DNA of 64,000 bases from contig OY762943.1 of assembly GCA_963667145.1 (NCBI GenBank), positions 145,459 to 209,458 on the forward strand, read 5' to 3'. This document shows, piece by piece, positions 40,637 through 57,187 of this stretch (positions within the stretch are counted from its first letter, which is position 1; every line of letters begins with the position of its first letter). Both the position numbers and the translations under genes were made by a program. This stretch comes from Candidatus Cloacimonadota bacterium. GTDB lineage: Bacteria > Cloacimonadota > Cloacimonadia > G963667145. The notes beneath the pieces are model-generated. The model was not told the DNA's origin, did not search any database, and saw nothing but the letters and a program-made list of their open reading frames with translations.

Positions 40637-40717
40637 AATTTACTGAAGAATAAAAGAATTGACACATTTTTCAGTTAATCTTATTGATACAACATATTAA
40701 AATTTTTGGAGGATTGG

Positions 40718-41488
40718 ATGTTTAGATTCGAAGAAATTGCAATCCCAAAGAGTCTATCGGAGGCTGCGGAATTATTGGCTACATCAGGTAGCGTTCCTGT
40801 TTCTGGTGGACTTTTTTTGCGGTTTGCAAAAGTCAAATGTCAGAAAGCTGTTGATTTGTCCGAGTTAGGTTTGGATTTCATCAAAAAAAGTGGTTCAACT
40901 GTAGAAATAGGTGCAACGACTTCTTTGCGAAAAATAGAGTTGGATACCGCAGACTATTTTGGAGGAGCTTTAAGCGTTGCTGCTTCACACATTCTGGGTG
41001 TGCAGTTTAGGAATTTGGCAACCATTGGCGGAGCGGTTATGGCAAAGCACGGATTTTCCAATTTGATTACCGTTTTGTTAGCTCTAGATGCAAAGTTGGT
41101 TTTTGCTTCGGGAAAAGTTGTCAGTTTGGCGGATTTCATCGAAAACAAGGTTGAAAAAGAGTTGTTGGAAAAAATTGTCATTGAGAACATTTTCGACAAA
41201 GTCAGTTTTCAATTGTTGCAACACACCTCTTTGGACATTGCGGTTTTAAATATCTGCGTAGCCAAAAAAGGTAAGGAAATTAACATCAGCGTTGGCTCTA
41301 GACCTCAAATTGCCGTGAGAGCAAAATCGGCGGAAAAAGAGTTTGCAAGTAGTGGCGATGTTTTGGCTACGGTTAAAGTTGCTGTTGATGAAATTTCTTT
41401 CGGAAAGGACGTGCGAGGTAGCGGTGAATATCGCAAGGCTTTGGCTGAGAGTTTGATAGAAAAAGCGATTGTGGAGGTAAGCAAATGA
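40718..41488 (+). CDS. Xanthine-dehydrogenase-family Mo-hydroxylase, FAD-binding (medium) subunit, operon 1
   Basis: CoxM/XdhB-like FAD-binding domain (VPVSGGLFL, ATIGGAV). ATG 40718 after RBS ggagga. Confidence 0.8.
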   Translation: MFRFEEIAIPKSLSEAAELLATSGSVPVSGGLFLRFAKVKCQKAVDLSELGLDFIKKSGSTVEIGATTSLRKIELDTADYFGGALSVAASHILGVQFRNLATIGGAVMAKHGFSNLITVLLALDAKLVFASGKVVSLADFIENKVEKELLEKIVIENIFDKVSFQLLQHTSLDIAVLNICVAKKGKEINISVGSRPQIAVRAKSAEKEFASSGDVLATVKVAVDEISFGKDVRGSGEYRKALAESLIEKAIVEVSK

Positions 41489-41940
41489 AATTAGACATTA
41501 TTTTGAACGGAGAACCGAAATCTTACCTCATCAACGAGGACGAATACCTTTTGGATGTTTTGCGAAATAACGGAATTACAAGCGTGAAAAGAAGTTGCGA
41601 CTCTTCTTCTTGTGCGATGTGCACCGTTTTGCTTGAGGGCAAACCAATTCTTTCTTGTTCGTTTTTGGCAGCTCGTGCTCAAGGCAAAGCTGTTACCACT
41701 GTCGAAGGCATTCAAAAAGAGGTCGCAGAGTTTTTCAAGGCGATGAACCAAGAGGGTGCTATCCAGTGTGGATACTGCGATTCCGCTTTGGCTGTGACTG
41801 TTTATGCTATGGTTAAGGAGCTTGGCACAAATTTAAGCGATGAGCAAATTAGACATTATGTAGGCGGAAATGTTTGTCGTTGTTCAGGTTATATGAGCCA
41901 AATGCGAGCTATAAAAACATTTTTGGGAGGTTTAAAATGA
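41485..41940 (+). CDS. Mo-hydroxylase [2Fe-2S]-binding (small) subunit, operon 1
   Basis: Plant-type and second 2Fe-2S Cys motifs (CDSSSCAMCTV; QCGYCDSA; CRCSGY). Confidence 0.85.
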   Translation: MKLDIILNGEPKSYLINEDEYLLDVLRNNGITSVKRSCDSSSCAMCTVLLEGKPILSCSFLAARAQGKAVTTVEGIQKEVAEFFKAMNQEGAIQCGYCDSALAVTVYAMVKELGTNLSDEQIRHYVGGNVCRCSGYMSQMRAIKTFLGGLK

Positions 41941-44270
41941 GTAAAATTGTTGGAATTTCTGTTCCCAAAAACGACGGCGAAGGAATGATAAAAGGTAAGC
42001 CACTCTATACCAACGATATGGCTATGCGAGATCCCGATGCTTTGATAGTCAAGATTATGCGTTCGCCCCATCCATTTGCTCGCATCAAATCTATCGATAA
42101 GAGTGTTGCTGAGAAGATGACGGGCGTTGCTACCATCATCACTCATTTGGATGCTGATGTTCCTCGCATCATTTATACGCGTGCAGGACAAGGATTTCCA
42201 GAGCCTTCTCCACACGACAAGTTCATTTTAGATGAGTATGTTAGATATGTTGGCGACGAAGTTTTGGCTGTGGCTGCTGTGGATGAGCGGACTGCCGAAG
42301 TTGCTTTGAAAGCTATCAAAGTTGAGTATGAGGTGTTAGAGCCTGTGCTTGATTTTGAAAAAGCCGAAAGTCACAAAAGCGTTATTCATCCCGAGCCGGA
42401 AGCTCACGAAATGTTCCCGATAGGCTTTGACCCCAAGAACAACTTGGCTTGCTCCTATTCTTGTGAGGATGGCAACACCGATTTGGAGATGTCCAAGAGC
42501 GACATAGTTGTCGAGGACACTTTTTACACACAGGCTCAGGCACATTATTGTGCGGAAACTCACAATTGCTACACTTATTTGGACGGACACGACAGACTGA
42601 ATGTCATCAGTTCCACGCAGGTTCCTCATCATATCAGAAGGATTATTTCCAAAGCGTTGAATTTTGACCGTGCAAGAATTAGAGTTCACAAGCCAAAAGT
42701 CGGTGGTGGCTATGGTGGAAAGCAACAAATTCACGGCGAGATGCTCGCTTGCATCACCACACTTCGCACAGGCAAAGGTGCTATTTGCAAATACAACCGA
42801 AAGGAAGTTTTTGAATCGACTTTTTCGCGTCATCAAATGAGGATTAAGGTCAAAATCGGTGCGAACAAAGACGGCTCTATCAACGCTATAGATATGAATG
42901 TTTTGTCCAACACGGGTGCTTATGGCGAACATGCTCTTACCGTGTTTATGCTTGCCGGTGGCAAGACTTTGCCTTTGTATGTAGTTGAAGGGCGTTCCAA
43001 AGCGGTAAAATTCGGTGGCAAGGTAGTTTACACCAACAAAACTCCTGGCGGTGCCTATCGTGGATATGGAGCTATGCAAGGAAATTATGCGTTGGAATCT
43101 ATGATGGATGTGTTGGCTGAAAAGGTCGGTGTTTCACCAGCTAAAATCCGTGAAATCAACATGATAAAAGAGGGTGAGACTTCTCCTTTGTTCAAACTCA
43201 TGGGCGAAGGAACCGAAGGTAAAGCGATGATGATTGAGTCGTGTAAACTCGACTATTGCATGAAAAGAACCAAGGAGCTTGCCAAATGGAACGACGAGTG
43301 TCAAGTCACCGAACTTGGCGAAGGCAAGGTTCGCGCTCAGGGAATGGCGATTGCCATGCAAGGTTCGGGCATTCAAGATATTGACATGGCTTCGGCTGTC
43401 CTCAAGCTGAACGACGACGGCTTCTTCAATCTCCTTATCGGTGCCACGGAAATCGGTCAAGGTTCGGATACAATTTTAAGTCAAATAGCCGCCGATGTTT
43501 TGAATATTGATGTTTCCAAGATAATTGTGTACTCTTCGGACACGGATACCACTCCATTTGACCCGGGAGCTTATGCTTCCAAAACCACTTATGTGACGGG
43601 CAATGCGGTTATCAAGGCTGCCAAAGCCATGAAAGCCAAAATCGAGAGCAAAGTTGCTTCTTTGTGGGAAGGTGACGCCAAAGATGTGGAATTTGACGGA
43701 AAATTCATCAAATCAGCCAACGGCAAAAATTCTATATCCATCGAAGATTTTAGTTCGGATATGTTCTACAAAATGTGCGGTGGGCAAGAGCAACTTATGG
43801 TTTGCGAGTCTTTTGTTCCCGAAGTTTCGCCACCTCCTTATATGGTTGCCATAGCTGACATTACCATCGATAAATCCACGGGACACTACGACATCAACGA
43901 CTATTTTGCCGTTATCGATTGTGGTGGAATCATCAATCCGGCTTTGGTGCAAGTGCAAGGCGAAGGTGGACTTGTGCAAGGGATAGGTATGGCTTGTTAC
44001 GAAGACGTTGTTTATTCCAATAGCGGACAAATGATGACTAACAACTTGTTCAACTACAAGGTGCCATCTCGCAAGGAAGTCCCCAAACTTACCGTAGAAT
44101 TTGCCGAATCTTATGACCCTACAGGACCTTATGGTGCAAAATCTATCGGAGAGATAGGCGTGGACACTCCCATGGCAGCCATTGCTAACGCCATCTACAA
44201 AGCAACTGGAGTAAGAATAAAGACACTTCCGCTATTCCCAGAAAAGATTTTGATGGGAATGAAAAAGTAG
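41937..44270 (+). CDS. Mo-hydroxylase molybdopterin-binding (large) subunit, operon 1
   Basis: About 777 aa, aldehyde oxidase/xanthine dehydrogenase a/b hammerhead and MoCo-binding domains. ATG 41937 overlaps the preceding stop (ATGA). Confidence 0.85.
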   Translation: MSKIVGISVPKNDGEGMIKGKPLYTNDMAMRDPDALIVKIMRSPHPFARIKSIDKSVAEKMTGVATIITHLDADVPRIIYTRAGQGFPEPSPHDKFILDEYVRYVGDEVLAVAAVDERTAEVALKAIKVEYEVLEPVLDFEKAESHKSVIHPEPEAHEMFPIGFDPKNNLACSYSCEDGNTDLEMSKSDIVVEDTFYTQAQAHYCAETHNCYTYLDGHDRLNVISSTQVPHHIRRIISKALNFDRARIRVHKPKVGGGYGGKQQIHGEMLACITTLRTGKGAICKYNRKEVFESTFSRHQMRIKVKIGANKDGSINAIDMNVLSNTGAYGEHALTVFMLAGGKTLPLYVVEGRSKAVKFGGKVVYTNKTPGGAYRGYGAMQGNYALESMMDVLAEKVGVSPAKIREINMIKEGETSPLFKLMGEGTEGKAMMIESCKLDYCMKRTKELAKWNDECQVTELGEGKVRAQGMAIAMQGSGIQDIDMASAVLKLNDDGFFNLLIGATEIGQGSDTILSQIAADVLNIDVSKIIVYSSDTDTTPFDPGAYASKTTYVTGNAVIKAAKAMKAKIESKVASLWEGDAKDVEFDGKFIKSANGKNSISIEDFSSDMFYKMCGGQEQLMVCESFVPEVSPPPYMVAIADITIDKSTGHYDINDYFAVIDCGGIINPALVQVQGEGGLVQGIGMACYEDVVYSNSGQMMTNNLFNYKVPSRKEVPKLTVEFAESYDPTGPYGAKSIGEIGVDTPMAAIANAIYKATGVRIKTLPLFPEKILMGMKK

Positions 44271-44282
44271 GAAAAATTATCT

Positions 44283-44313
44283 GGAAGCTATCTCATAAGT
44301 TGGGATAGCTTCC
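44283..44313 (+). terminator. Hairpin GGAAGCTATC-tcataagttg-GATAGCTTCC after operon 1
   Basis: 10-bp perfect stem, no clear U-tract. Confidence 0.45.
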
Positions 44314-44560
44314 ACCTGTTGATAGTGAGAATAGGCGAAACACAGGTTGGATTGTAATAAGTTGAAGAATGAGATATAAAAAATTTAAGAAAATTATTGA
44401 CTTAAAAGATGGCACAACGACAATTCGATTGTTTGCTCTATGGGCATTGGAAATGAGCGTGGCGAAGTGGAATCTCTTTTTCTGGATTTGAGATGCTATG
44501 TAGCTTGTGGTTGGATAGTTGGGAGCTTAGAATAGATTCAATTTATTCAGGAGTAAAATA

Positions 44561-46105
44561 ATGAAAGAAAAAATCCAGGCTTTACAAGAAAAGATTGCTG
44601 AGGCTCACCTTGGTGGTGGTCAGAAGAGAATTGATGCTCAACATGACAAAGGAAAATGGACAGCGAGAGAGCGTATAGACTATCTTCTTGACGAGGGCAG
44701 TTTTTCAGAAATGGATATGTTTGTGACTCACAATTGTCACAATTTTGGAATGGAAAATGACAAGACAATTGGTGACAGTGTTGTCACTGGCTCAGGTATG
44801 ATAGATGGGCGTCTTGTTTATTTGTTTGCACAAGATTTCACCGTAAGCGGTGGTTCTTTATCAAAGGTTCATGCCGACAAGATTTGCAAGATTATGGACG
44901 AAGCCATGAAAGTTGGAGCACCAGTTATCGGATTGTTGGATTCCGGTGGAGCGAGAGTGCAAGAAGGTATCGATTCTTTGGCTGGTTTCGGCGAAATTTT
45001 CGTGCGTAATGTAATGGCATCAGGTGTTATTCCTCAAATTTCAACCATATTAGGTCCGTGTGCAGGTGGAGCTGTTTATTCTCCAGCTATTACCGATTAC
45101 GTTATTATGAATAATGAGAACTCTTTCATGTTCATTACAGGTCCTAAGGTTGTAAAAACAGTTCTTTTTGAAGATATTACTACCGAGGATTTGGGTGGAG
45201 CAGATGTTCATATGCAAAAATCAGGCGTTTCTCATTTCAAAGGTGAGGGCGAGCAAGACACATTAGACCACATCAAGTATTTGCTTAGCTACATTCCTTC
45301 TAACTTTAGAGAGACTCCTCCAGAGTATGAATGTACCGATCCTATTGACAGAAAAAATGTTGGTTTTGAGGATATGATTCCTGACAACATTAACAAAGGT
45401 TATGACATTAGAGACGTTATAACTGAGGTTGTTGACGATAATGAGTTCTTCGAAGTTTCTAGAGATTTCGCAAGAAATATTGTTATTGGATATGCTCGCA
45501 TGAATGGAAAAACTGTTGGTATTGTTGCTAATCAACCAGCTTTTTTGGCAGGTTGCTTGGACATTAATGCATCTGTAAAAGCAGCTAGGTTTGTGAGATT
45601 TTGCGATAGTTTTAATATTCCTCTTTTGGTTTTTGAAGATGTGCCAGGATTTATGCCAGGTTCTACACAAGAACACAACGGAATTATTAGAAATGGTGCA
45701 AAATTGATGTACGCTTTTGCCGAGGCTACTGTTCCAAAGGTTACCCTCATTTTGCGTAAAGCGTATGGTGGAGCTTACATTGTGATGAACTCTCGTCATC
45801 TTTATGCTGACAGAGTGGTTGCTTGGCCTTCTGCCGAGATTGCTGTTATGGGTTCTAAGGGAGCTGTTGAGATTTTGTTCAGGAGAGCTTCCAAAGATCA
45901 AGAAGATCCTAAAGCGTTTTTGGCTGAAAAAGAAGCTGAATATAAAGAGAAGTTTGCCAATCCTTATGATGCAGCGTCCAAAAGTTATATAGATGGTGTT
46001 ATTTTGCCGTCCGAGACTAGAACTTATCTCATAAAAACTTTGGAACAATTGGCAAACAAAGAAGCAGAAATACCTGCTAAGAAGCATGGTAATATTCCGC
46101 TTTAA
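44561..46105 (+). CDS. Acyl-CoA carboxyltransferase (methylmalonyl-CoA decarboxylase alpha / propionyl-CoA carboxylase beta family)
   Basis: 514 aa. Carboxyltransferase N and C domains ([18 protein letters not shown]; [11 protein letters not shown]). Confidence 0.85.
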
Positions 46106-46135
46106 TGAGATTTAAAAAATAATTAGGAGTTAGTA

Positions 46136-46948
46136 ATGAAGTTTGATTTTGATTATTATGCCCCAGAATCAGAAAGTGAACTCTTAGATCTTTTAGCCAA
46201 TACAAATGATGCAGTTATTTTAGGTGGTGGAACAGATTTGATAGTGAACATGAGGGCAGGACTCAGAAAGCCTGCAGCTGTTATCGACTTTAAAAAAATA
46301 GCCGGTTGTAATAAGATTGAATTTTCTTCTGACAAAGGTTTGGTTATCGGTGCAGGTGCTACGGTGAATGAGCTTTTGGAAGACAAAGTTGTAAAAGAGA
46401 AGTTTCCTATTTTGGCTGACGCATGCCATTTGTTGGCTTCTCATCAACTTCGCAATAGAGCAACTGTGATAGGTAATGTGGTTAACGCTTCTCCATCTGG
46501 AGATTTGCCTCCAGTGTTCTTGGTTTTGGATGCGTCCATTAAGTTGGTTAGCAAAAAAGGCGAAAGAGTAGTTCCGTTAAAAGATTTCTTTACCGGAGTT
46601 AAAAAAACTGTGCTCGCTACGGATGAATGGGCAAAAGAGATTATTGTGCCTGCAAATAGTGCAAACGCTAAGGGTGGTTACAAAAAACTTACCAGAATTA
46701 AAGGTCACGATTTGTCTTTGTTGGGTGTAGCTGTTGCTAAGGGTAACGACTTCCTTGCTGTGTCTGTAAATGCTGCTGCTCCAACTCCAGTGTTAGTTGG
46801 CAAATATTCTGCAGATACTAAAGTTGACAAAGTTGTTGACGAAATCTCAAACAAAATATCACCTATCGATGATGTCCGTTGTAGCAAAGAGTATAGGATG
46901 TTTATGGCTAAGAAGTATGCCAAAGATATTATGAAGGAGATTGCATAA
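46136..46948 (+). CDS. Mo-hydroxylase FAD-binding subunit, operon 2
   Basis: ILGGGTDLIV, ATVIGNV FAD-binding motifs. Paralog of 40718-41488. Confidence 0.8.
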   Translation: MKFDFDYYAPESESELLDLLANTNDAVILGGGTDLIVNMRAGLRKPAAVIDFKKIAGCNKIEFSSDKGLVIGAGATVNELLEDKVVKEKFPILADACHLLASHQLRNRATVIGNVVNASPSGDLPPVFLVLDASIKLVSKKGERVVPLKDFFTGVKKTVLATDEWAKEIIVPANSANAKGGYKKLTRIKGHDLSLLGVAVAKGNDFLAVSVNAAAPTPVLVGKYSADTKVDKVVDEISNKISPIDDVRCSKEYRMFMAKKYAKDIMKEIA

Positions 46949-47415
46949 TGAAAACTATTTCTGTAAAAGTTAATGGTGATATGTACACCAAAGACGTAGC
47001 TGATAGTCAAATTCTGTTGCATTTTTTGAGAGATGATCTTGGTTTTACTGCTGCCAAAGAAGGTTGTGGAGCTGGAGAGTGCGGTGCTTGTACCATCTTT
47101 ATGAATGGTAGAGTCGTTAATGCATGTCTTGTTTTTGCTGCTGAGGCTGATGGTGCTGAGATTGTTACTCTGGAAAATGAGTCTAAAAATGGGGAATTGT
47201 CTGAATTGCAAAAAGCTTTTCAAAAGCATCAAGCTGTTCAATGTGGATATTGCACAGCTGGAATGATTATGTCTGTTAAAGAGCTTTTGCTTCGTAATTC
47301 AAAGCCGTCTGTTGACGAAATCAAGGAACAAATTGAAGGAAACTTCTGTCGTTGTACTGGATATAGTCAAATCATAGACGCTGTTTTGGACGTAACCGGA
47401 CAATTGGATAATTAG
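46948..47415 (+). CDS. Mo-hydroxylase [2Fe-2S] subunit, operon 2
   Basis: CGAGECGACTI, QCGYCTAG, CRCTGY motifs. Confidence 0.85.
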   Translation: MKTISVKVNGDMYTKDVADSQILLHFLRDDLGFTAAKEGCGAGECGACTIFMNGRVVNACLVFAAEADGAEIVTLENESKNGELSELQKAFQKHQAVQCGYCTAGMIMSVKELLLRNSKPSVDEIKEQIEGNFCRCTGYSQIIDAVLDVTGQLDN

Positions 47416-47434
47416 GAAAGAGGGAGAAATTGTT

Positions 47435-49822
47435 ATGTACGAAAATGATAAAAATCTCAAGTATATAGGTAAAGATATCCCACGTAAAGATACCGTTTCC
47501 AAAATTTCTGGTGAGGCTCTTTACGCTACTGATATGGTACTTCCGGGTATGCTTCATGGTTTGGTGAAAGTTAGTCCTTATGCGAGTGCAAAAATTCTGA
47601 AGATAGATACGAGTAAAGCTGAGGCTTTGCCAGGGGTTAGAGGTGTTTTGACAGGTAAGGAACTTGATTATAAAATTGGTCTTTACTTAGTGGATAAAGA
47701 TGTTCTTGCTAAAGATTTTGTTAGACATTATGGCGAGGCTGTAGCGGCTGTTGCTGCTGATGATTTGAAGATTGCACAACAAGCTATTGACCTTATCGAA
47801 GTTGAATACGAAGAGTTGACTCCAGTGCTTAATGTAAAAGATGCACTCAAAGAGGATGCTCCAGTTATTCATCCTGATTTGGGCAAATACGACTATTTTG
47901 AGCCTTGTTTCACTCCTCAGCCAGGAACTAACGTTGCGAACCACACTAAAACTAGAAAAGGTGATGTGGACAAAGCTTTTGCAAATTCCGACTATATAGT
48001 AGAGCGTGAATATACCAATCCTGCTGTGCAACACGTGCCGATGGAAACTCATGCTGCTATCGTTCAATGGAAAACCAACGACAATATTCAAATTTGGTCT
48101 TCTGCTCAATCTGCATTTACCGTTAGAAACTTGATGGCGACTTCTTTCAAATTGCCTCATTCCAAAATCAAAGTTACTATTCCTAACGTTGGTGGTGGAT
48201 TTGGTGGTAAAGCTGGTGTTGGTATTGAGCCTCTTGTGGCTTGTCTTTCCAAGAAAGCTGGTGGACGTCCTGTTAAATTTGTTGCTTCTCGTGAAGAAGA
48301 GTTCTATATGTTGCCAAGACGTACTGGTCTTACCTATAACATCAAAACTGGTCTTGCCAAAGACGGTAAAATTTTGGGTCAAAAAATGACTCTTTACTGG
48401 GATGCTGGTGCTTATGCTGATTATGCTGTGAACGTAACCAGAGCAACTGGTTATTCGGCTAACGGCCCTTATCATATTCCAGATGCTTGGCTCGACGGAT
48501 ACACAATTTATACAAACTTGCCTTATTCTACTGCTTATAGAGGATTTGGACACGTAGAATTTTCTTGGGGATTGGAGCGTCATATGGATTTGTGTGCTCA
48601 GGCTCTTAACATTGACCCTTATGAATTCCGTAAGATAAATATGTACAAACCTGGTTCCACTACTATCACAGGCGAAGAGATTACCGCTAACTCAGGTGAT
48701 GTTCGCAAGTGTATGGAAACAGTCAAAGAAGCTATCGGCTATGGCAAGTTGAGTGCTGAAGAAAAAGCTATTGAAGCTACAGGTAAAAAAATTGGTAAAG
48801 CTATGGTGACTTTCAAAAAAGCACCTGCAATGCCTGCTTTTACTGGCTCTACAACTACCATCAGAATGAACGAAGATGGAACAGTTAACGCAAACCTTAC
48901 TCTTACTGAGATTGGTCAAGGTGCTTACACTGCAATGGCAGGAATGATTGCTGAGCGTCTTCGTATTCCTTATGAAGATGTAAACGTTACTATTTACTGT
49001 GATACCGAACACGACCCCTATGACTGGCAAACTGTGGCTTCCAAAGGTTTGTTCATGAGTGGTAATGCAACTATCAAAGCCGCTGACGACTTATTGGAAA
49101 GAGCTTACAAAGTTGCTGCTGAAGTTTTGAGATGTGATGTTGTCGATTTGGATCACCAAGACGGCAAAATCTTTATCAAACACCATACCAAATCTTTCGT
49201 TACTTTTGCTCAAGTTGCTGTTGGATACGCCTATCCTAACGGAAATGGTATTGGCGGACCTATCTTGGGTGTTGGAAGTTACATCGCTCAAGGTCTTACC
49301 AACTTGGAAAAAACCACTGGTCAAGGCTATCCCGCTTTGGATTGGACAATGGGAGTTCACGGTGTAATTGTGGAAGCTGACCCTGAATCTGGTGAATATA
49401 CTATCAGAAAAATTGCTACAGCTATGGACTTAGGTAAAGTTATCAACCTTGGATGTGCCAAAGGTCAAACTTTCGGTGCTGTTATTCAAGGAATGGGAAC
49501 AGGTGTTTGTGAAGGCTACATCTACAACGATAAAGGTGTTCTGATGAACCCTAACTTCACTGACAATAAAATTCCTACTTCCAAAGATATGCCTCTTGAA
49601 ATGGAATTTTATCCTGTTGAGACTCCGCAACTTGACGGACCTTTTGGAGCTAGAGGTATTGGTGAACCACCAATGTTGTCTGTTGCTGCGGGTATTGGTA
49701 ACGCACTTAAAGATGCTTTGGGTATCGAACTTCTTAACTTGCCAATAAAAGCTGAAAATGTTTGGGAAGCAATCGCTGAAAAAGACAAATTCAATGTTGC
49801 TGACTATGTAACTAAAAAATAA
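47435..49822 (+). CDS. Mo-hydroxylase molybdopterin-binding large subunit, operon 2
   Basis: 795 aa. Paralog of 41937-44270 (GGGFGGK, GIGEPP motifs). Confidence 0.85.
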   Translation: MYENDKNLKYIGKDIPRKDTVSKISGEALYATDMVLPGMLHGLVKVSPYASAKILKIDTSKAEALPGVRGVLTGKELDYKIGLYLVDKDVLAKDFVRHYGEAVAAVAADDLKIAQQAIDLIEVEYEELTPVLNVKDALKEDAPVIHPDLGKYDYFEPCFTPQPGTNVANHTKTRKGDVDKAFANSDYIVEREYTNPAVQHVPMETHAAIVQWKTNDNIQIWSSAQSAFTVRNLMATSFKLPHSKIKVTIPNVGGGFGGKAGVGIEPLVACLSKKAGGRPVKFVASREEEFYMLPRRTGLTYNIKTGLAKDGKILGQKMTLYWDAGAYADYAVNVTRATGYSANGPYHIPDAWLDGYTIYTNLPYSTAYRGFGHVEFSWGLERHMDLCAQALNIDPYEFRKINMYKPGSTTITGEEITANSGDVRKCMETVKEAIGYGKLSAEEKAIEATGKKIGKAMVTFKKAPAMPAFTGSTTTIRMNEDGTVNANLTLTEIGQGAYTAMAGMIAERLRIPYEDVNVTIYCDTEHDPYDWQTVASKGLFMSGNATIKAADDLLERAYKVAAEVLRCDVVDLDHQDGKIFIKHHTKSFVTFAQVAVGYAYPNGNGIGGPILGVGSYIAQGLTNLEKTTGQGYPALDWTMGVHGVIVEADPESGEYTIRKIATAMDLGKVINLGCAKGQTFGAVIQGMGTGVCEGYIYNDKGVLMNPNFTDNKIPTSKDMPLEMEFYPVETPQLDGPFGARGIGEPPMLSVAAGIGNALKDALGIELLNLPIKAENVWEAIAEKDKFNVADYVTKK

Positions 49823-49846
49823 AACTCACAAAAAAAAGGAGAAATT

Positions 49847-51064
49847 ATGCAAAAAGTTGATGGAAAAACTGTCATTCTTGGTTTGCAACACACATTCGTA
49901 ATGTTTGGTGCTACTGTGCTCGTTCCTATTCTTACAGGATTGGATGTGGGCGTAACCTTGTTCATGGCAGGTATTGGTACTTGGTTATTCCATATTTTAA
50001 CCAAGTTTGAAGTTCCTGTATTCTTGGGAAGTTCTTTTGCTTTCATGCCAGGAATCTTTGCAGTTGTTAAAATGGAAGGTGGTACTTTGTCTGAGGCATG
50101 CGGGGGTATCGTTTTGGCAGGTCTTGTGTATGTTTTGGCGTCTATTATTTTTAAAATAGTAGGTCACGAAAATCTTCATAAGATTCTTCCTCCTCACGTT
50201 ACTGGGCCGGTTATTATTTTGATTGGTCTTCTCTTGGCACCTGTAGCTATTGGTAGTGCACAAGCTAACTGGGCTTTGGCTATGTTTACTTTTGCAGTTG
50301 CAGCTTTTGTTAAGATTTTCTTTGAAAAAAGAAACAAATTACTTTCTATGTTGCCTGTTCTCATCTCTTTGATAGCTGGGTATGTTGTCAGCATGATCTT
50401 CGGTTTGGTTGACTATACTCCTATCAGCGATGCTGCTTGGTTTGGTGTTCCAAAATTTACCATGGCTACTTTCTCAGGTCGTAGTGCAGCTATCATTATC
50501 CCTATTGCTATTGTTACACTTGTAGAGCACTTTGGTGATGTACTTGCTATTGGTAATGTTGTTGGTAAAGACTTTATCAAAGAACCTGGTGTTCACAGAA
50601 CTGCTCTTGGTGATGGGGTTGCAACTAGTTTGTCTGCTCTTTTCGGTGGTCCTGCTAACACTACATATTCTGAGAATACTGGTGCAGTTGCTCTTACAGG
50701 AGCAAGAAATCCTGTTATCATGAGAGTTGCTGCTTGTTTTGCTATTTTGCTTGCTTTTATTCCTAAGTTTACTTCTATTATTAGCACAATTCCTGGACCA
50801 GTTATCGGTGGAATTTCTATTTTGCTTTTCGGTATGATTTCTTCTATCGGTATTAGCAATATGGTTCAAGCTAAGATTGATTTTGCTGACCCTAGACCTT
50901 TGATGACAGCTGCTACTATTTTGGTTATTGGACTTGGTGGTGCTAGCATTTCTCTTGGAGGTGTTACTTTCCAAGGTCTTGGTTTGGGTGCTATAGTAGG
51001 TATTCTTTTGAATGCTGTTTTCTTGCTTACTACTAAAGAGCCAATTAAAAAGCTTGAAGACTAA
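49847..51064 (+). CDS. NCS2-family nucleobase permease (xanthine/uracil permease)
   Basis: 405 aa, 12-14 TM. N-terminal VILGLQHTFVMFGATVLVP typical of NCS2/UraA-PbuX. Confidence 0.8.
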   Translation: MQKVDGKTVILGLQHTFVMFGATVLVPILTGLDVGVTLFMAGIGTWLFHILTKFEVPVFLGSSFAFMPGIFAVVKMEGGTLSEACGGIVLAGLVYVLASIIFKIVGHENLHKILPPHVTGPVIILIGLLLAPVAIGSAQANWALAMFTFAVAAFVKIFFEKRNKLLSMLPVLISLIAGYVVSMIFGLVDYTPISDAAWFGVPKFTMATFSGRSAAIIIPIAIVTLVEHFGDVLAIGNVVGKDFIKEPGVHRTALGDGVATSLSALFGGPANTTYSENTGAVALTGARNPVIMRVAACFAILLAFIPKFTSIISTIPGPVIGGISILLFGMISSIGISNMVQAKIDFADPRPLMTAATILVIGLGGASISLGGVTFQGLGLGAIVGILLNAVFLLTTKEPIKKLED

Positions 51065-51078
51065 AGAATAGTTAATTT

Positions 51079-51873
51079 TTGATTAGACTTAAAGGCGAAA
51101 TAAGAGGAAGGCTTTTTGCTCCGTTGGAGATGGTTGGCAGAGTACATACCATCTTTAGCAAGGCGGTGAACGTGCTGGTTGGTAATCAGTATTACACATT
51201 GCTCAGAGACGAAAATTTGCTTTCCCCTTATTCGCTTTTGGTTACATCTCTATTCGCCAAAAAAATAGAGTTGAAAAGCCAACTGGTTTATTTTTATCAA
51301 GATGTGGTGAAAATAGGTGAGTTGGTGGAGATAGAGTTGCCGAGAGATTCGGTTGATATGGCTCTTGACTCTAAGGATGAGATTGCTACTGGATTCGATT
51401 TTGATGTAGAGAATTTGGTTGAATTTATTTGTTCGTTTGGTAAGCCTGAGGGCTTATTGGGGATTATAGATAAGGCAATTTCGTCTGTGTGGAGCAATAA
51501 GGCTCTAAGGGTATTGGGAGATGGTGAGTTGGAACGCTGTGCTGACTTGGTTGGTTTGGGAATAGGGTTTACTCCCAGCGGGGACGATTTTTTGTGTGGT
51601 GTGCTTTTGGGACTTGATGCGTTGGGGAGAGAGGAAGAGTTTGTGCTGTTGAAAAACCGCTTGGACTTGGAGAGAACGAGTTTGGGTGGCAGAAGTCTTC
51701 TTATGGGGGCTTTGCTAAGGCAATATCCACTTGCTTTTAGAAATTTTGTTTGTGGTGTGGGTAAGGGTAATTTGGACAAAGAGATATTTAATTTTGGATC
51801 CACTTCAGGCACTGATTTTGCTTGTGGATTATGTTGGGTTTTAAAAAAATATAATGAAAGGAAAAGACGATGA
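51079..51873 (+). CDS. DUF2877-like protein (YlbF/AllH-like by context); start uncertain
   Basis: 264 aa, immediately upstream of and overlapping the fdrA homolog. Assignment is by synteny with E. coli fdrA-ylbE-ylbF. Confidence 0.4.
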   Translation: MIRLKGEIRGRLFAPLEMVGRVHTIFSKAVNVLVGNQYYTLLRDENLLSPYSLLVTSLFAKKIELKSQLVYFYQDVVKIGELVEIELPRDSVDMALDSKDEIATGFDFDVENLVEFICSFGKPEGLLGIIDKAISSVWSNKALRVLGDGELERCADLVGLGIGFTPSGDDFLCGVLLGLDALGREEEFVLLKNRLDLERTSLGGRSLLMGALLRQYPLAFRNFVCGVGKGNLDKEIFNFGSTSGTDFACGLCWVLKKYNERKRR

Positions 51874-53423
51874 AAGAAATCTATGTAGAGAAAGATTCGT
51901 ACTTTGATTCCGTTGTGTTGATGCTTATCAATCGTGAAGTCAAAAAAATCGAAGGTATTTCCGAGGCTGTTGTGGCTATGGGTACGCCCATGAACTTGGA
52001 TTTGTTGAACGATTTGAAAATGGTTAACGATGATGTTAAAAGTGCTACACCCAACGATTTAATCATTGCTATCGAGTCTGATGATGAAGCTGTCTTGGCT
52101 GAAGCGATGGAAACAGCTAAGAAAAAGCTGAACGAAAAGGGTTCGGCTGATGAGGGAGAAACCTATAAACCGGCTACTTTGGAAGCTGCTATTAACACTT
52201 ATTCCGACATTAACATGGTTGTGATTTCTTTGCCAGGTGCTTTTGCACCTTCTCAAGTGCGTAAAGCTCTTAACAATGGCAGACACGTGATGCTTTTCTC
52301 TGATAACATTCCGCTTGAGCAAGAGATTTCCCTAAAGAAATTGGCTAAAGAAAAAGGTCTTTTGATGATGGGTCCTGACTGTGGAACCGCTATCATTAAT
52401 GGCAAACCTTTGTGCTTTGCCAACGTGGTGAAAAAAGGTCCTATCGGTGTTGTTGGTGCTTCTGGAACAGGTTTGCAAGAGATTACTTGTAGTATCGAAA
52501 AATTTGGTTCAGGTGTATCTCAAGGAATTGGTACTGGCGGAAGAGACTTGAAGAGCGAAGAAATCGGTGGAACAATGATGTTGATGGGTATCGAAGCTCT
52601 GAAAAACGACCCTGAAACTAAGGTTATCACAATCGTTTCCAAGCCTCCTGTAGAATCTGTTGCCAAAAAAGTTATCGATGCTTTGGAAAATTCTGGAAAG
52701 CCAGGTGTTGTTCACTTCATCGGTTTGGATGGTGAAGACACAAAGAATGTTCATTTTGCCAAGAACTTGGAAGAGGCTGCTAAAATGGCTGTTGCTCTTG
52801 CCAATAACGAAAAATTTGAAAGAACTTTGTTTACCATTTCAGACAGCGAAGTTGATGCAATTGTTGCTAAAGAAACCGCTAAAATTGCAAGTCATCAAAA
52901 ATATTTGAGAGGTATGTACACTGGTGGAACTCTTGCTGATGAGGCTATGATTCTGCTTAATGACAGCCTTGGCGGAGTTTATTCTTTTGATCACGTTGAC
53001 AAAAATTTCATCTTGAAAGATCCGTTCAAATCTACTGGACACACTATTGTGGATTTGGGAGAAGATGTATTCACTAATGGTCGTCCTCACCCGATGATTG
53101 AGCCGGGCACCAGAGATGACAGAATTCTTTTGGAAGCTAAAGATAAAGAAATCGCTTTGATGTTGCTTGACGTTGTGATTGGTTACGGTTCGCATGTTGA
53201 CCCTGCTGGTGCTATTTTGGACAGTTTGAAAGTGGCTAAGGACAGTGCGGAAAAGAATGGTGGTTATTTGTCAATAGTAGCTTCTATTACAGGTACCGAG
53301 GGAGATTACCAAGGATTTGCTGACCAAAAACGCAAATTGGAATCTATCGGTGTTGTAGTGATGCCTTCTAACTATCAGGCTTCTATGTTGGCTCTGAAAA
53401 TTATGGAAAAGGTAGGTAAATAA
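51870..53423 (+). CDS. fdrA: FdrA (AllF)-like succinyl-CoA-synthetase-alpha-fold protein
   Basis: Extended similarity to E. coli FdrA: FDSVVLMLI, MGTPMN, ATPNDLIIAIES, MLFSDNIPLEQEISLKKLAKEKGLLMMGPDCGT, GVVGASGTGLQE. Confidence 0.85.
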   Translation: MKEIYVEKDSYFDSVVLMLINREVKKIEGISEAVVAMGTPMNLDLLNDLKMVNDDVKSATPNDLIIAIESDDEAVLAEAMETAKKKLNEKGSADEGETYKPATLEAAINTYSDINMVVISLPGAFAPSQVRKALNNGRHVMLFSDNIPLEQEISLKKLAKEKGLLMMGPDCGTAIINGKPLCFANVVKKGPIGVVGASGTGLQEITCSIEKFGSGVSQGIGTGGRDLKSEEIGGTMMLMGIEALKNDPETKVITIVSKPPVESVAKKVIDALENSGKPGVVHFIGLDGEDTKNVHFAKNLEEAAKMAVALANNEKFERTLFTISDSEVDAIVAKETAKIASHQKYLRGMYTGGTLADEAMILLNDSLGGVYSFDHVDKNFILKDPFKSTGHTIVDLGEDVFTNGRPHPMIEPGTRDDRILLEAKDKEIALMLLDVVIGYGSHVDPAGAILDSLKVAKDSAEKNGGYLSIVASITGTEGDYQGFADQKRKLESIGVVVMPSNYQASMLALKIMEKVGK

Positions 53424-53424
53424 G

Positions 53425-54849
53425 ATGGATGTTAAAGCTATAAATAAATTGTTTACCCAAAATTTAGTTGCCGCTAATATGGGTTTGGAGAGTTTTGCTG
53501 ATAACTTGAGAGAGCAAGATACCAAAGCTATTCAAGTTGCTTGGAAGCCGCCTGCTGGTGGTGATCCAAAATTGGTTGCTCTTTTGGATGCTATCGAAGC
53601 GAGTGTGGATGTTCCTGCTGCTAACGCCAAAGCTATCAAAAATATTATGGATTCTAAGCCTGTTTTGATGGATATTGGTGTTGCTCTTAATGATATTCCT
53701 GGAATGGAAGAAAAGATGTTCTTGCATTCAGGACCTCCAGTAACTTGGGAAAGAATGAGTGGACCTACTCGTGGTGCCGTGATTGGCGGTATCATTTTTG
53801 AAGGTTGGGCTTCTACTCCAGAAGAGGCTGAAAAATTGGCTGCTTCTGGTGCGATTAAATTCGACCCTTGTCATCATCATAGCACAGTTGGACCGATGGC
53901 TGGTATCGTTACTCCGAGCATGCCTGTTTGGATAGTGAAGAACGAAACTTTTGGCAATATTGCTTATGCTACCCTGAACGAAGGTTTGGGCAAAGTGCTT
54001 CGTTATGGTGCTTACGGCGAGGAAGTTAACAACCGTTTGACTTGGATGAAAGACGTTTTGGCTCCTGTTTTGAAAGCTGCTCTTAAAGCTCACGGACCTT
54101 TCGATATGAAGAACGTGATTGCTCAAGTTTTGCAAATGGGTGATGAAGGTCACAACCGTAACCGTGCAGGTACTTCTATCGTTATTAGAGAGCTTGCTAG
54201 TTGTTTGGTTAAATTGGATGGTTTCAGCAAGGAAGATATTGCTGCTGTGTTTGATTTTCTTAATGAAAACGACCACTTCTTCCTTAACTTGTCTATGCCT
54301 ACTGCCAAAGCGATTATCGATTCTGCGGCTAATATAGAAGGTTCTACCATCGTGACAGTGATGGCGAGAAATGGTACGGATTTTGGTATCAGAGTTTCTG
54401 GGCTCGGTGATGAATGGTTTGTTGACCAAGCTCCGATAGTTGAGGGTCTTTATCTTCCAGGTTACACCGAAGATGATGCTGCTCGCGATATTGGTGACTC
54501 TACCATTACCGAGACTGCTGGATTTGGTGGATTTGCTATGGCTGCTGCTCCTGCTATTGTTAAGTTTGTTGGTGGTTCGCCTGATGACGCACTCACTTTC
54601 ACCAAGAGAATGTATGAGATTACTGATGGTGAAAATAGCACTTTCCAAATTCCTATATTGGATTTCCGTGGTACACCAACTGGTATTAACTTAATCAAGA
54701 TTATTGAGACGGGAATTATGCCAGCTATCAATACGGGTATTGCTCACAAAACTCCAGGTGTTGGTATGGTTGGAGCAGGACTTGTAGAGCCACCTATGAA
54801 GTGTTTCACTGATGCTTTGGAAGCTTTTGCTAAAAAATATTCTAAATAA
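53425..54849 (+). CDS. DUF1116-like protein (YlbE/AllG-like by context)
   Basis: 474 aa, translationally coupled to the fdrA homolog. Assignment is by synteny. Confidence 0.45.
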   Translation: MDVKAINKLFTQNLVAANMGLESFADNLREQDTKAIQVAWKPPAGGDPKLVALLDAIEASVDVPAANAKAIKNIMDSKPVLMDIGVALNDIPGMEEKMFLHSGPPVTWERMSGPTRGAVIGGIIFEGWASTPEEAEKLAASGAIKFDPCHHHSTVGPMAGIVTPSMPVWIVKNETFGNIAYATLNEGLGKVLRYGAYGEEVNNRLTWMKDVLAPVLKAALKAHGPFDMKNVIAQVLQMGDEGHNRNRAGTSIVIRELASCLVKLDGFSKEDIAAVFDFLNENDHFFLNLSMPTAKAIIDSAANIEGSTIVTVMARNGTDFGIRVSGLGDEWFVDQAPIVEGLYLPGYTEDDAARDIGDSTITETAGFGGFAMAAAPAIVKFVGGSPDDALTFTKRMYEITDGENSTFQIPILDFRGTPTGINLIKIIETGIMPAINTGIAHKTPGVGMVGAGLVEPPMKCFTDALEAFAKKYSK

Positions 54850-54879
54850 AAAAAATATATTAAAAAAAGGAGATATATC

Positions 54880-55698
54880 ATGACAAATCAAGAATTCATG
54901 GACATGATGTCCAAAGATATCAAAATGTATGATTTGACAATGAGATTGTCTGTACACACACCACCATGGCCAAGTTATATGCCTCTTGGCTTGCAATATT
55001 TCAAAAGAATTGCTGGTGCTCACATGGGTCAAGGAGCTAATGGACAAATAGTTCACACTTCTAACCACGTTGGTACCCACATTGACGGTGAAGTTCACTT
55101 CTTCGCTGCTGGTCGTACTATTGGTGATACTCCAATGGATTTTTGGGTAGGAGATGCAGCTGTTGCTGATATTTCTGACAAAGTTCAAGACTATGATTTT
55201 TATACCCCAGAAATGATTGAGGAAGTAGTGGAAGTTAGAGAAGGTGATATTCTTGTAATCAACACCGGTTACAATCGCTATGGCTGGGACCAACCAGGAG
55301 CTGATGAGTTGAGATATTTTGTTAAGCATCCAGGTCCTTCTCCAGAGTTCCACAAATGGGCAATCAAGAAAAAAATCAAATGGATTGGGATTGATGCAGG
55401 TTCTGCTGATCACCCAATGAACACCATTATTAGAACTTGGCACCCAAAAGATTTCATCAAAACTGATGAGTTGATGAAAGAAAAATATGGCAAGAGCTTT
55501 GATGAATTGTATCCATTGGATGAATTCTATCAAGTGATGCACTTGAATTTGTTCCCAAAAGGTCTTATTCATGCAGAGAACCTTGGTGGTCAAATTAATG
55601 AGCTCGGAAGCAAGAGAGTATGGCTTGGATTGTTCCCTCTTCGTGGTATTGAGATGGAATCTTCTATGTGTCGTATCGTTGCTTTGGAGCCTAAATAA
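54880..55698 (+). CDS. Cyclase-family metal-dependent amidohydrolase (kynurenine-formamidase-like fold)
   Basis: HVGTHIDGEVHF matches the HxGTHxDxPxH cyclase-family motif. RBS aaaggag. Confidence 0.7.
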   Translation: MTNQEFMDMMSKDIKMYDLTMRLSVHTPPWPSYMPLGLQYFKRIAGAHMGQGANGQIVHTSNHVGTHIDGEVHFFAAGRTIGDTPMDFWVGDAAVADISDKVQDYDFYTPEMIEEVVEVREGDILVINTGYNRYGWDQPGADELRYFVKHPGPSPEFHKWAIKKKIKWIGIDAGSADHPMNTIIRTWHPKDFIKTDELMKEKYGKSFDELYPLDEFYQVMHLNLFPKGLIHAENLGGQINELGSKRVWLGLFPLRGIEMESSMCRIVALEPK

Positions 55699-55762
55699 GA
55701 TATTTGAGTAGTGTAAATTACTTGAAAAAATAAAAAAAGCATATATTAAGGAGACATGTAAA

Positions 55763-56494
55763 ATGCCTAAAAGAGTAGATCAAAATAATCTTCCAAGCTT
55801 GGAAGAAATTGAAGGACTTTTGAATGCACCAAAAGCCCCAGAAATGAAACCTTATCCGCCTAAAAAAATTAAGTTGAAAGACGGTAAAGTGATGGTAGTA
55901 AGAGAAGCTACCTTTAGAGATATTAACCAACTTTTGGAAGCTGTTAGACCTTTGATGTTTGTACCAGACGATTGGTATGACATTGTTTCAGTTAGAATGT
56001 ACGGTGAAATCTTGGGTTGGTACCGCAATAGAGTTGCTAACTGTTTCGTGATTGTTGGAACAGTAGATGGCGAATTGGTTGGTATTGTTACTTCTCGTCA
56101 CAAAAACAAAGATACTGGTATGAGCCTTCACACTCTTGCTCTTAAAAGAGGTTGTAGAGCTGGTGCTCACTTGTTGGCTGCTAAGATGGAGCATCATCTT
56201 GATATTTTGGGCGAAAAAGAGGTTCTTATCGTTGCTGAATCTACTAACGGATTCCGCAGATGGATGGGCGAGTACGGTATGATGGACTATACTGATCTTT
56301 ACAAAGATGGTTTTGGTTTGTCACACGAACTTGGTGGTGGACCAACTTTCTCATTGACCAAAGAAATTTGGGACGAGATGAAAGCTGAAAAATGCAAAAA
56401 TGATGGTACACCAACTGAAGAAGAATTGGCTGCAACTTATCCTTTGAAAGTTCCTAGAGAGTATCCTCAAATTCTTGGATTTGCTAGAAACTAA
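55763..56494 (+). CDS. Hypothetical protein, possible GNAT-like fold
   Basis: 243 aa. No firm motifs. Last gene of the catabolic block before a strong terminator. Confidence 0.3.
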   Translation: MPKRVDQNNLPSLEEIEGLLNAPKAPEMKPYPPKKIKLKDGKVMVVREATFRDINQLLEAVRPLMFVPDDWYDIVSVRMYGEILGWYRNRVANCFVIVGTVDGELVGIVTSRHKNKDTGMSLHTLALKRGCRAGAHLLAAKMEHHLDILGEKEVLIVAESTNGFRRWMGEYGMMDYTDLYKDGFGLSHELGGGPTFSLTKEIWDEMKAEKCKNDGTPTEEELAATYPLKVPREYPQILGFARN

Positions 56495-56524: not shown

Positions 56525-56552
56525 GCAGGGTCTGAAAAGGCCCTGCTTTTTT
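56525..56552 (+). terminator. Rho-independent terminator GCAGGGtctgaaaagGCCCTGC-TTTTTT
   Basis: GC stem plus T6. Confidence 0.75.
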
Positions 56553-56641
56553 ATTGTATAATTGTAATAATTACAAATTTAACTTGACAACAATTCTGAA
56601 CGAGATTTGTTAGTTTTATAATTGAAATTAAGGAGATAAAA

Positions 56642-57187
56642 ATGAAGAAGTTTATTTGTAGTGTATGTGGTTATGTTCACGAAGGAGACCAAGCTCCAGA
56701 AAAATGTCCTCAATGTGGCGTTGACAAGAGCAAATTTGATGAGAAAAGTTCTGGTGAAATGGTTTGGGCTGCCGAGCATGTGGTGGGAATTGCCAAAGGT
56801 TTGGACGAAGAAGTTGTTTGTGGGTTGAAAGATAACTTTATGGGCGAATGCACGGAAGTGGGAATGTACCTCGCCATGAGTAGAGTTGCTGATAGAGAGG
56901 GCTTGCCGGAAGTTGCTGAAGCTTACAAAAGAATAGCTTTTGAGGAAGCTGAGCATGCCGCAAAATTTGCTGAGCTTTTGGGTGAAGTGGTTACCGATTC
57001 CACCAAGAAAAATTTGGAAATGAGAGTTGATGCCGAATGTGGAGCTACTGCTGGAAAGGTTGCTTTGGCGAAAAGAGCAAAAGAGCTCGGATACGATGCT
57101 ATCTATGACACTGTGCACGAAATGGCAAGGGACGAAGCTCGTCACGGCAAGGCTTTCAAAGGTTTGTTGGACAGACATTTTGCTTAA
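56642..57187 (+). CDS. Reverse rubrerythrin (N-terminal rubredoxin-like CxxC...CxxC domain + diiron ferritin-like domain)
   Basis: [21 protein letters not shown] at the N-terminus. ExxH diiron motifs EEAEHAAKF / DEARHGKAF. Confidence 0.85.

Follow-up and report, generated by a model that had tools for sequence, protein, structure and literature searches.

A ten-gene operon of a Candidatus Cloacimonadota bacterium as a candidate for anaerobic pyrimidine degradation through carbamoyl phosphate

Which compound is broken down by a run of genes that brings together two molybdenum enzymes, a nucleobase permease and homologs of the E. coli oxamate carbamoyltransferase AllFGH? The question is raised by positions 40706-56494 of contig OY762943.1 as numbered in our 64-kb window, i.e., the whole stretch of DNA that was analyzed, from a Candidatus Cloacimonadota bacterium. 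A preliminary description had read this block as a composite island for anaerobic purine and ureide catabolism, built from normally separate components. Our analysis divides the block into two units and points, tentatively, to pyrimidines for the second. This unit, a 10-gene operon (44561-56494), may well degrade uracil or thymine via barbiturate and ureidomalonate to carbamoyl phosphate/ATP and acetyl-CoA. With a little less assurance, we regard the operon and its relatives in four phyla as a possible case of an energy-conserving fermentation of pyrimidines by anaerobes that has not been described before. In digesters, sediments and guts, significant amounts of nitrogen and carbon pass through the anaerobic turnover of nucleobases. 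Pyrimidines are known to be degraded by the reductive, Rut and URC pathways and, aerobically, via barbiturate.

The listing of open reading frames (ORFs) gives an unbroken run of genes on the plus strand. Domain searches confirmed all the components named in the preliminary description, co-oriented and essentially where it had placed them. They include two trios of flavin adenine dinucleotide (FAD), iron-sulfur (FeS) and molybdenum (Mo) subunits. One extra gene, encoding a GNAT-fold protein, was found at the 3' end. The features of the block are:

40706-41488, plus strand: FAD1, FAD-binding subunit of Mo enzyme 1, YgfM-like (PF00941, 79 bits; PF03450)
41485-41940, plus strand: FeS1, 2x[2Fe-2S] subunit of Mo enzyme 1 (PF01799, PF00111)
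41937-44270, plus strand: Mo1, molybdopterin subunit of XdhD type (Pfam MoCoBD_1/2)
44283-44313, plus strand: hairpin with a perfect 10-bp stem just 3' of Mo1 (sequence and fold)
44561-46105, plus strand: carboxyltransferase of PCC-beta/MmdA type (PF01039, 647 bits)
46136-46948, plus strand: FAD2, FAD subunit of Mo enzyme 2 (PF00941, 164 bits)
46948-47415, plus strand: FeS2, 2x[2Fe-2S] subunit of Mo enzyme 2 (PF01799, 100 bits)
47435-49822, plus strand: Mo2, molybdopterin subunit of a cluster-specific type (Pfam)
49847-51064, plus strand: NCS2/NAT permease of UraA/RutG type (PF00860, 288 bits)
51079-51873, plus strand: AllH (DUF2877) homolog (PF11392, 52 bits, cut-off 25)
51870-53423, plus strand: AllF (FdrA) homolog (NF004760, 518 bits, cut-off 433)
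53425-54849, plus strand: AllG (DUF1116) homolog (PF06545, 330 bits)
54880-55698, plus strand: cyclase-family metal-dependent amidohydrolase (PF04199, 113 bits, cut-off 23)
55763-56494, plus strand: GNAT-fold protein, last gene of the operon (predicted fold; no Pfam or NCBIfam match)
56525-56556, plus strand: intrinsic terminator at the operon end (9-bp stem with 6 GC pairs, then TTTTTT)

Both trios are in M-S-L order, with the PF01039 carboxyltransferase between them and the NCS2 permease after the second, as had been described. FeS1 overlaps FAD1 and Mo1 by 4 nt each. From the carboxyltransferase through the GNAT gene, the intergenic gaps of the 10 genes are at most 64 nt. The sole long gap (290 nt) separates Mo1 from the carboxyltransferase and has the hairpin at its start. 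Because of these short gaps, the terminator at 56525 and the long gap with its hairpin, the block is read as two units, FAD1-FeS1-Mo1 (unit 1) and the 10-gene operon (unit 2), and the Mo1 trio is probably a separate transcription unit. The 50-nt stretch 3' of Mo1 that contains the hairpin folds at -22.7 kcal/mol, marking a possible boundary between the two units; since it is not followed by a T-tract, its role as a terminator is only putative. No riboswitch or other RNA leader was found in the block, and there was no Rfam match at E <= 0.1. The word island did not hold up, as GC content is 0.409 within the block and 0.404 in the rest of the window, and an island acquired by horizontal transfer was rejected for want of compositional support. 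AllG is 87-95% identical to proteins of complete Candidatus Cloacimonadota chromosomes, which are syntenic over the part covered, from the Mo1 3' end to the GNAT-fold gene. The region is probably native to the Candidatus Cloacimonadota chromosome.

The AllH, AllF and AllG genes of unit 2 are contiguous, with a 4-nt overlap between the first two and a 1-nt gap between the last two. Their order is permuted relative to allF-allG-allH of E. coli, as the preliminary description had noticed, and its assignment of DUF2877 and DUF1116 was upheld by hidden Markov model (HMM) searches, at the scores listed above. By BLAST, AllF is 38% and AllG 47% identical to the E. coli proteins, and alignment shows that AllF shares conserved motifs with E. 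coli AllF. AllH has no BLAST-level similarity to E. coli AllH and was matched by HMM only; its TTG start is uncertain. A SucD-like phosphohistidine motif (GHAGA) was sought in AllF and is absent, and the conserved motifs reveal no mechanism. In E. coli, AllFGH converts oxalurate and phosphate to carbamoyl phosphate and oxamate, and oxamate carbamoyltransferase activity was shown with purified protein (PMC11326118). Three adjacent genes of the same families are present in both organisms, and the chemistry, phosphorolysis of an acyl-urea to carbamoyl phosphate and an amide, is likely shared. The surroundings differ. The E. coli system has allantoin genes and the carbamate kinase allK, whereas the window, whose large ORFs were scanned across the 64 kb for this and all other statements of gene absence, has neither allB/C/D/E nor allK. 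Unlike in E. coli, AllHFG is linked here to a cyclase-family hydrolase, a Mo hydroxylase, a UraA-like permease and malonyl-CoA-type enzymes. Because of this linkage, the substrate is probably ureidomalonate, the one-carbon homolog of oxalurate, rather than oxalurate itself. Since the allantoin-gene context was looked for and not found, the operon does not belong to the allantoin system.

The point at which AllF ends and AllG begins varies among lineages. Residues 10-58 of AllG match residues 507-555 of E. coli AllF, so that about 50 residues of the AllF C-terminus lie at the AllG N-terminus (53425-53600). AllF and AllG are fused into one protein of 1026-1040 amino acids in Sphaerochaeta/Treponema-type loci (L039-L042, 5919-9049), and some Chloroflexia loci (L023-L025) also look fused. 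The moving boundary and the fusions argue for an obligate AllF-AllG complex. In seven Riflebacteria-type loci (L006, L008, L010, L011, L012, L018 and L020), about 200 nt separate AllF from a 417-residue AllG ORF and encode the N-terminal segment of AllG in another frame or as a separate short ORF (e.g., L018, 9974-10201); a frameshift, a separate small peptide and an assembly artifact are possible explanations. AllH evolves faster than its partners, with 53-75% identity among Cloacimonadota (L002-L004) versus 87-95% for AllG, and was not detected beside AllF in the Riflebacteria locus L018.

These genes recur in other lineages. We collected 38 related loci, 34 through homologs of AllG and four through homologs of the last gene, from Spirochaetota, Riflebacteria, Chloroflexota and Cloacimonadota, and scored them by BLAST against a reference set. 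A cyclase gene adjoins AllG or lies near it in 35 of the 38; of the three other loci, one is truncated by the end of its contig. Mo2-type trios occur within 10 kb in 18 loci, and 22 loci have a UraA-like permease. Cultured bacteria with such a cluster include Sphaerochaeta halotolerans and Gracilinema caldarium. By gene content, unit 2 is thus a member of a widespread catabolic cluster with AllF-AllG and a cyclase-family hydrolase as its invariant core. The components are not normally separate, as had been supposed, since this core, the Mo2-type enzyme, the UraA-like permease and a (methyl)malonyl-CoA-type module occur together across phyla. Five loci (L007, L027, L028, L041 and L042) carry a carbamate kinase in or beside the cluster, that of L028 scoring above the arcC cut-off. 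The proposal of an anaerobic route from a nitrogen heterocycle to carbamoyl phosphate and ATP, distinct from the E. coli allantoin pathway, is plausible. No allantoin-pathway genes were found in the related loci with precomputed Pfam annotation, and no AtzD/'Toblerone' barbiturase domain in the window or the annotated loci.

Two modules accompany the core. Module A (L028, L029, L034/35 and L036/37) consists of an amidase of the amidase-signature family, one or two family-III CoA-transferases and a complete Na+-translocating decarboxylase set, i.e., carboxyltransferase, OAD gamma, biotin carrier and OAD beta, the last scoring 512 bits on TIGR01109 (cut-off 191). In L034 the order is permease, AllH, AllF, AllG, cyclase, CoA-transferase, amidase, a second CoA-transferase on the opposite strand, thioesterase, carboxyltransferase, OAD gamma, biotin carrier, OAD beta and Mo subunit; all genes but one are co-oriented over about 14 kb, and L028, L029 and L036 are arranged similarly. 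In module B (L015 and L038-L042), a homolog of the GNAT-fold protein comes directly after the cyclase and is followed by an archaeal-type thiolase and a DUF35/zf-ChsH2 protein, which may perform a decarboxylative condensation of malonyl-CoA. In our window, a carboxyltransferase as in module A stands together with a member of the GNAT-fold family typical of module B.

Since malonamate was predicted as an intermediate, the amidase of module A was expected to be malonamidase-like, and malonamidase E2 was then found to be its nearest relative. Two of these amidases were examined, and for both malonamidase E2 was the best match among all PDB sequences (180 bits versus 157 for the next match, and 150 versus 109). 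Arg158 of malonamidase E2 was considered as a diagnostic residue and dropped; it is conserved in the cluster amidase but does not discriminate, its equivalent being conserved across the amidase-signature family. The cluster CoA-transferases score best on the CoA:oxalate CoA-transferase model, with 375 bits (cut-off 522). Because of the malonamidase-like amidase, the dicarboxylate CoA-transferase and the PCC-beta/MmdA carboxyltransferase with its Na+-pump subunits, the compound degraded appears to yield a three-carbon malonyl fragment and a urea unit. The ring of uracil or thymine consists of exactly such parts, a urea unit and a malonyl or methylmalonyl unit. A cytosine-deaminase-like gene in L038, below its family cut-off, points weakly to pyrimidines too. 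A gene with the nucleoside phosphorylase fold in L028 was considered as a uridine phosphorylase and rejected, being MTA/SAH-nucleosidase-like.

The permease of unit 2 also has features of a pyrimidine carrier. It is 36-38% identical to UraA and RutG versus 27% to XanQ and UacT. Its NAT motif reads SENTG; the Glu is found also in UraA (E290) and RutG, whereas xanthine and urate carriers have Gln, and this residue at the first position of the NAT signature is read here as a marker of substrate specificity. The TM3 motif GSSFAF is common to UraA. The model of the NCS2 superfamily was passed, while the RutG model gave 274 bits against a cut-off of 759. The carboxyltransferase scores 774 bits on the mmdA model (TIGR01117, cut-off 998.8), and its best PDB matches are propionyl-CoA carboxylase beta subunits and the alpha subunit of methylmalonyl-CoA decarboxylase. 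It is of the PCC-beta/MmdA type and not of the glutaconyl type, and is proposed as a candidate alpha subunit of a (methyl)malonyl-CoA decarboxylase. It thus belongs to the same family as the Na+-translocating MmdABCD-type decarboxylases, but falls below the mmdA subfamily cut-off. The full set of alpha, gamma, biotin carrier and beta subunits is encoded in the L028, L029, L034 and L036 clusters and not in this window.

The two Mo enzymes had been called paralogous, which is correct in the deep sense of the family. Both trios have FAD, 2x[2Fe-2S] and Mo-cofactor modules by Pfam, and the nearest PDB relative of both large subunits is the alpha subunit of 4-hydroxybenzoyl-CoA reductase, a distant one. 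By sequence identity, however, they belong to different subfamilies (28% between Mo1 and Mo2, 28% between FAD1 and FAD2, 30% between FeS1 and FeS2). Both large subunits fall below every NCBIfam equivalog cut-off, the best scores being 606 and 499 bits against 780. Equivalents of the catalytic Glu (bovine 1261) and of Arg880 are conserved in both Mo1 and Mo2. At the position of the xanthine-binding Glu802, Mo1 has Gln and Mo2 has Ala. Positions refer to a fragment that we take to represent bovine xanthine oxidoreductase (XOR), in which the motifs are unambiguous. Judged by these residues and scores, neither enzyme qualifies as a xanthine dehydrogenase proper of the XdhABC, PucCDE or bovine XOR type.

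Mo1 is the only member of the block with a connection to purines. It is 35% identical to E. coli XdhD, and the best E. coli match of FAD1 is YgfM (27%). An insertion in Mo1 (LMGEGTEG) aligns with AIGEGKAP of XdhD and carries the equivalent of Glu606; it is common to Mo1 and its close homologs and was not found in XdhA or in Mo2-type enzymes. XdhD-YgfM reduces urate to 2,8-dioxopurine, and Glu606, which XdhA does not have, was proposed to orient the substrate (PMC12507026). A homolog with 64% identity to Mo1 is encoded in Clostridium sp. MB40-C1 (L043), directly after a UacX-like gene and near YgeX-, YgeY- and YgeW-like genes, adenine deaminase and XdhC; the same cluster has a second xanthine-dehydrogenase-like enzyme with the Glu802 equivalent. 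Because of its likeness to XdhD/YgfM, the Glu606 insertion and this homolog in a clostridial uricolytic cluster, Mo1 is probably a purine enzyme of the urate/2,8-dioxopurine oxidoreductase type and functionally separable from unit 2. The reductive uric acid pathway of E. coli thus offers the closest relatives of Mo1 and FAD1, with the Glu606-type insertion in both. In contrast to the E. coli system, the Mo1 enzyme has its FeS domain as a separate protein. The pathway genes YgfK/UacX, SsnA, HyuA and YgeW/X/Y are not in our window, whereas UacX and YgeX/Y/W-like genes surround the homolog in L043. The Arg880 position is Arg in Mo1 and its close homologs from Clostridia and Marinitoga and Gln in E. 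coli XdhD, and the Mo1 clade (57-65% identical across phyla) may differ from E. coli XdhD in substrate handling. FAD1 has a TTG start without a clear ribosome-binding site, and its true start may lie a few codons downstream. Translation of Mo1 from the ATG at 41937 reproduces database entry P0241 exactly.

Mo2, FeS2 and FAD2 are closest in E. coli to XdhA (30%), XdhC (45%) and XdhB (27%), respectively. Mo2 is 41-64% identical to Mo subunits encoded beside AllFGH-cyclase genes in other phyla. All members of this group have Ala at the Glu802 position and a KAPA motif at the Phe1009 position, and have kept Arg880 and the catalytic Glu.

In the cyclase-family protein, the motif HxGTHxDxxxH is present, and HVGTHIDGEVH aligns with HTGAHVDGPLH of kynurenine formamidase. 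We propose it as a candidate ring-opening hydrolase that would convert barbiturate to ureidomalonate. In Chloroflexia (L022-L026, about 11431-13131), the cyclase is a tandem double-domain protein of about 560 amino acids with two PF04199 stretches, and a GNAT-like gene is placed divergently upstream of AllF. The last gene of unit 2 belongs to a family of which 509 homologs were detected (228-243 amino acids, no Pfam domain), with 52-57% identity between Cloacimonadota, Spirochaetota and Terriglobales. From 27 sequences, AlphaFold2 gave a model with a pLDDT of 84.7. Because the top Foldseek matches in PDB are all GNAT acyl-CoA N-acyltransferases (E down to 1.5e-7, TM about 0.45-0.53 on the query), the protein is predicted to be of a CoA-dependent acyl-transfer type. 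Its gene is directly 3' of the cyclase in the Sphaerochaeta/Treponema-type clusters.

The proposed pathway of unit 2 would begin with import of uracil or thymine by the UraA/RutG-like permease. Mo2 would hydroxylate C6 to give barbiturate or 5-methylbarbiturate, with electrons leaving through the 2Fe-2S and FAD subunits. The cyclase-family metallohydrolase would open the ring to ureidomalonate (3-oxo-3-ureidopropanoate), and the AllFGH-type carbamoyltransferase would phosphorolyze this to carbamoyl phosphate and (methyl)malonamate. Carbamate kinase would make ATP from carbamoyl phosphate; its gene would lie elsewhere in this genome and is part of the cluster in other lineages. Malonamate would be converted to malonyl-CoA by the GNAT-fold protein here, and by the malonamidase-like amidase and a family-III CoA-transferase in other lineages. 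Finally, the MmdA-type carboxyltransferase would decarboxylate (methyl)malonyl-CoA to acetyl- or propionyl-CoA, which presumably requires biotin-carrier and Na+-pump subunits from genes in another part of the genome.

Such a system may be viewed as a hybrid of the oxamate branch of E. coli, with AllFGH and carbamate kinase, and the aerobic barbiturate pathway, with a (methyl)malonyl-CoA decarboxylase attached. The enzymes of the aerobic pathway of Rhodococcus and its relatives are uracil/thymine dehydrogenase, barbiturase and ureidomalonase. Its first step likewise depends on a dehydrogenase with molybdenum, FAD and iron-sulfur cofactors, those of the Rhodococcus enzyme. Barbiturate and 3-oxo-3-ureidopropanoate would be intermediates of both routes. 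The aerobic pathway uses a barbiturase of the AtzD family, which a cyclase-family hydrolase would replace here. In the aerobic oxidative route, pyrimidine is converted via barbiturate and 3-oxo-3-ureidopropanoate to malonate and urea (PMC3758960). Here, the ureido group would leave as carbamoyl phosphate, yielding ATP, instead of urea, and the malonyl moiety would be carried as a CoA ester, its decarboxylase being a Na+ pump in certain lineages. The hosts live strictly anaerobically. In the open-access papers searched, neither a cluster of cyclase, AllFGH and Mo enzyme nor an anaerobic barbiturate/carbamoyl phosphate route was found, and an earlier description elsewhere is possible. The same literature yielded no gene assignment for uracil/thymine dehydrogenase.

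Several observations weigh against the pyrimidine pathway. The identity of its substrate is drawn from gene context and from the similarity of transporter and amidase. The best NCBIfam match of the permease, the uracil-permease equivalog, gives 336 bits (cut-off 477), and the permease has Asp in place of His245 of UraA. The carboxyltransferase family is generic, and its role in the pathway is therefore assigned solely from operon position and recurrence; it scores 666 bits (phmmer) against solved propionyl-CoA carboxylases and 570 bits with 53% identity (BLASTP) against the cluster-linked copies, scores of different programs that are not strictly comparable. The window encodes its alpha subunit and no OAD beta, gamma or biotin-carrier subunit, and has no carbamate kinase, pathway amidase or CoA-transferase. 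That the GNAT-fold protein handles the step from amide to CoA thioester is speculative, its sole basis being a mutually exclusive distribution, as the family occurs in 13 loci and an amidase and/or CoA-transferase in four, with zero overlap. The thiolase/DUF35 variant finds no detailed explanation in the model. Sixteen Riflebacteria-type loci carry AllF-AllG-cyclase only, with no Mo enzyme within 10 kb. A neighbor-joining tree of AllG, with an arbitrary root and the sampling used, did not cleanly split cyclase-linked from E. coli-like loci.

Some of these points would suit another ureido heterocycle handled by the same logic, such as a cytosine or isocytosine derivative, a 5-substituted uracil, a hydantoin, an imidazolone or a modified nucleobase, in which case the acyl-urea would not be ureidomalonate. 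All components stay below the equivalog-level cut-offs for defined substrates, the downstream modules vary by lineage (decarboxylase; GNAT, thiolase and DUF35; or none), and the permease departs from UraA at His245. However, the malonamidase E2-like amidase and a carboxyltransferase family specific for (methyl)malonyl-CoA suggest malonyl plus urea, that is, a pyrimidine ring, and uracil and thymine would be the abundant natural candidates. We regard another heterocycle as rather unlikely, though it deserves serious consideration. The purine and ureide reading of the preliminary description is less probable again. It would have both Mo enzymes oxidize a compound such as xanthine, urate or an allantoin-like ureide toward oxalurate, which the cyclase would supply, say by opening parabanate or another five-membered ureide ring, and AllFGH would then form oxamate and carbamoyl phosphate. 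Isatin hydrolase, a member of the cyclase family, indeed opens an alpha-keto lactam, and the best model of the cluster CoA-transferases is the oxalate one. Moreover, AllF and AllG resemble the E. coli oxamate carbamoyltransferase to the extent given above and AllH matches PF11392 (PMC11326118), while Mo1 is XdhD/YgfM-like, with the Glu606 insertion and close homologs in uricolytic clusters (PMC12507026). This reading is supported for Mo1 and not for the main operon. Mo1 is absent from all non-Cloacimonadota clusters, Mo2 does not have the xanthine-binding Glu, and the permease has the Glu NAT motif of UraA/RutG and not the Gln of xanthine and urate carriers. Neither the window nor the annotated related loci have allantoinase, allantoate amidohydrolase or ureidoglycine/ureidoglycolate enzymes, and a biotin-dependent MmdA-type carboxyltransferase and a malonamidase-like amidase would have no role after oxamate or oxalate.

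A chance juxtaposition of a purine Mo enzyme, a carboxyltransferase of central metabolism and a further Mo enzyme with a nucleobase permease and an AllFGH unit, all without a common pathway, is highly improbable. The 290-nt gap with its hairpin does set Mo1 apart, the carboxyltransferase is generic and lacks its partner subunits here, and the Cloacimonadota genes of the window are almost all on one strand. Yet the gaps from the carboxyltransferase to the GNAT gene are short and end in a single terminator, and the same families are found together in different gene orders in Spirochaetota and Chloroflexota.

If the pyrimidine pathway is correct, it would be a new mode of fermentation, with ATP from the ureido group via carbamoyl phosphate and an ion-motive force from the malonyl moiety, some lineages adding Na+-motive decarboxylation. 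It would explain a cluster now annotated as 'xanthine dehydrogenase family / FdrA / DUF1116 / cyclase / hypothetical', and would broaden the newly discovered AllFGH class of carbamoyltransferases beyond oxalurate. It would also provide the first gene assignments for uracil/thymine dehydrogenase (Mo2 type), for a barbiturase outside the AtzD family (cyclase family) and for a 'ureidomalonate carbamoyltransferase' (AllFGH paralog), and perhaps for a novel enzyme of the GNAT fold with malonamate as its substrate.

The rest of the window offers no further parts of the pathway. As the preliminary description had stated for a carbamate kinase and for the allantoinase, allantoate and ureidoglycolate enzymes, none was found among its large ORFs; arcC, ssnA, ygeW, ygeX, ygeY, hyuA, YgfK/UacX, xdhC and selD were looked for as well and are absent there. 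An upstream amidase (27817-29229) was rejected as the pathway amidase because it is GatA (TIGR00132, 541 bits, cut-off 481). Four tandem paralogous AMP-binding enzymes of 507-522 amino acids (31339-37589) were rejected as malonyl-CoA synthetases, scoring about 170 bits on the malonyl-CoA synthase model (cut-off 558); they are closest to the acyl-ACP synthetase/long-chain fatty-acid ligase domain of Aas-type proteins and seem unrelated to the operon. Upstream of the block, the window contains restriction-modification genes, transporters, PFOR, chaperones, iPGM, GatA, GlmS, these four acyl ligases, Nudix, MscS and CinA. A restriction-modification gene of type I-like character, at 230-4254, has an 822-residue product that fuses an N6-methylase, an HsdR N-terminal domain and a DUF559 endonuclease-like domain, and a specificity subunit comes after it. 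Directly downstream of the operon (56642-61794) there is an oxidative-stress cluster with two rubrerythrins, a Fur-family regulator, ferritin, Fpg glycosylase, a flavodiiron protein, desulfoferrodoxin and a flavin reductase, parts of which are syntenic in related Cloacimonadota.

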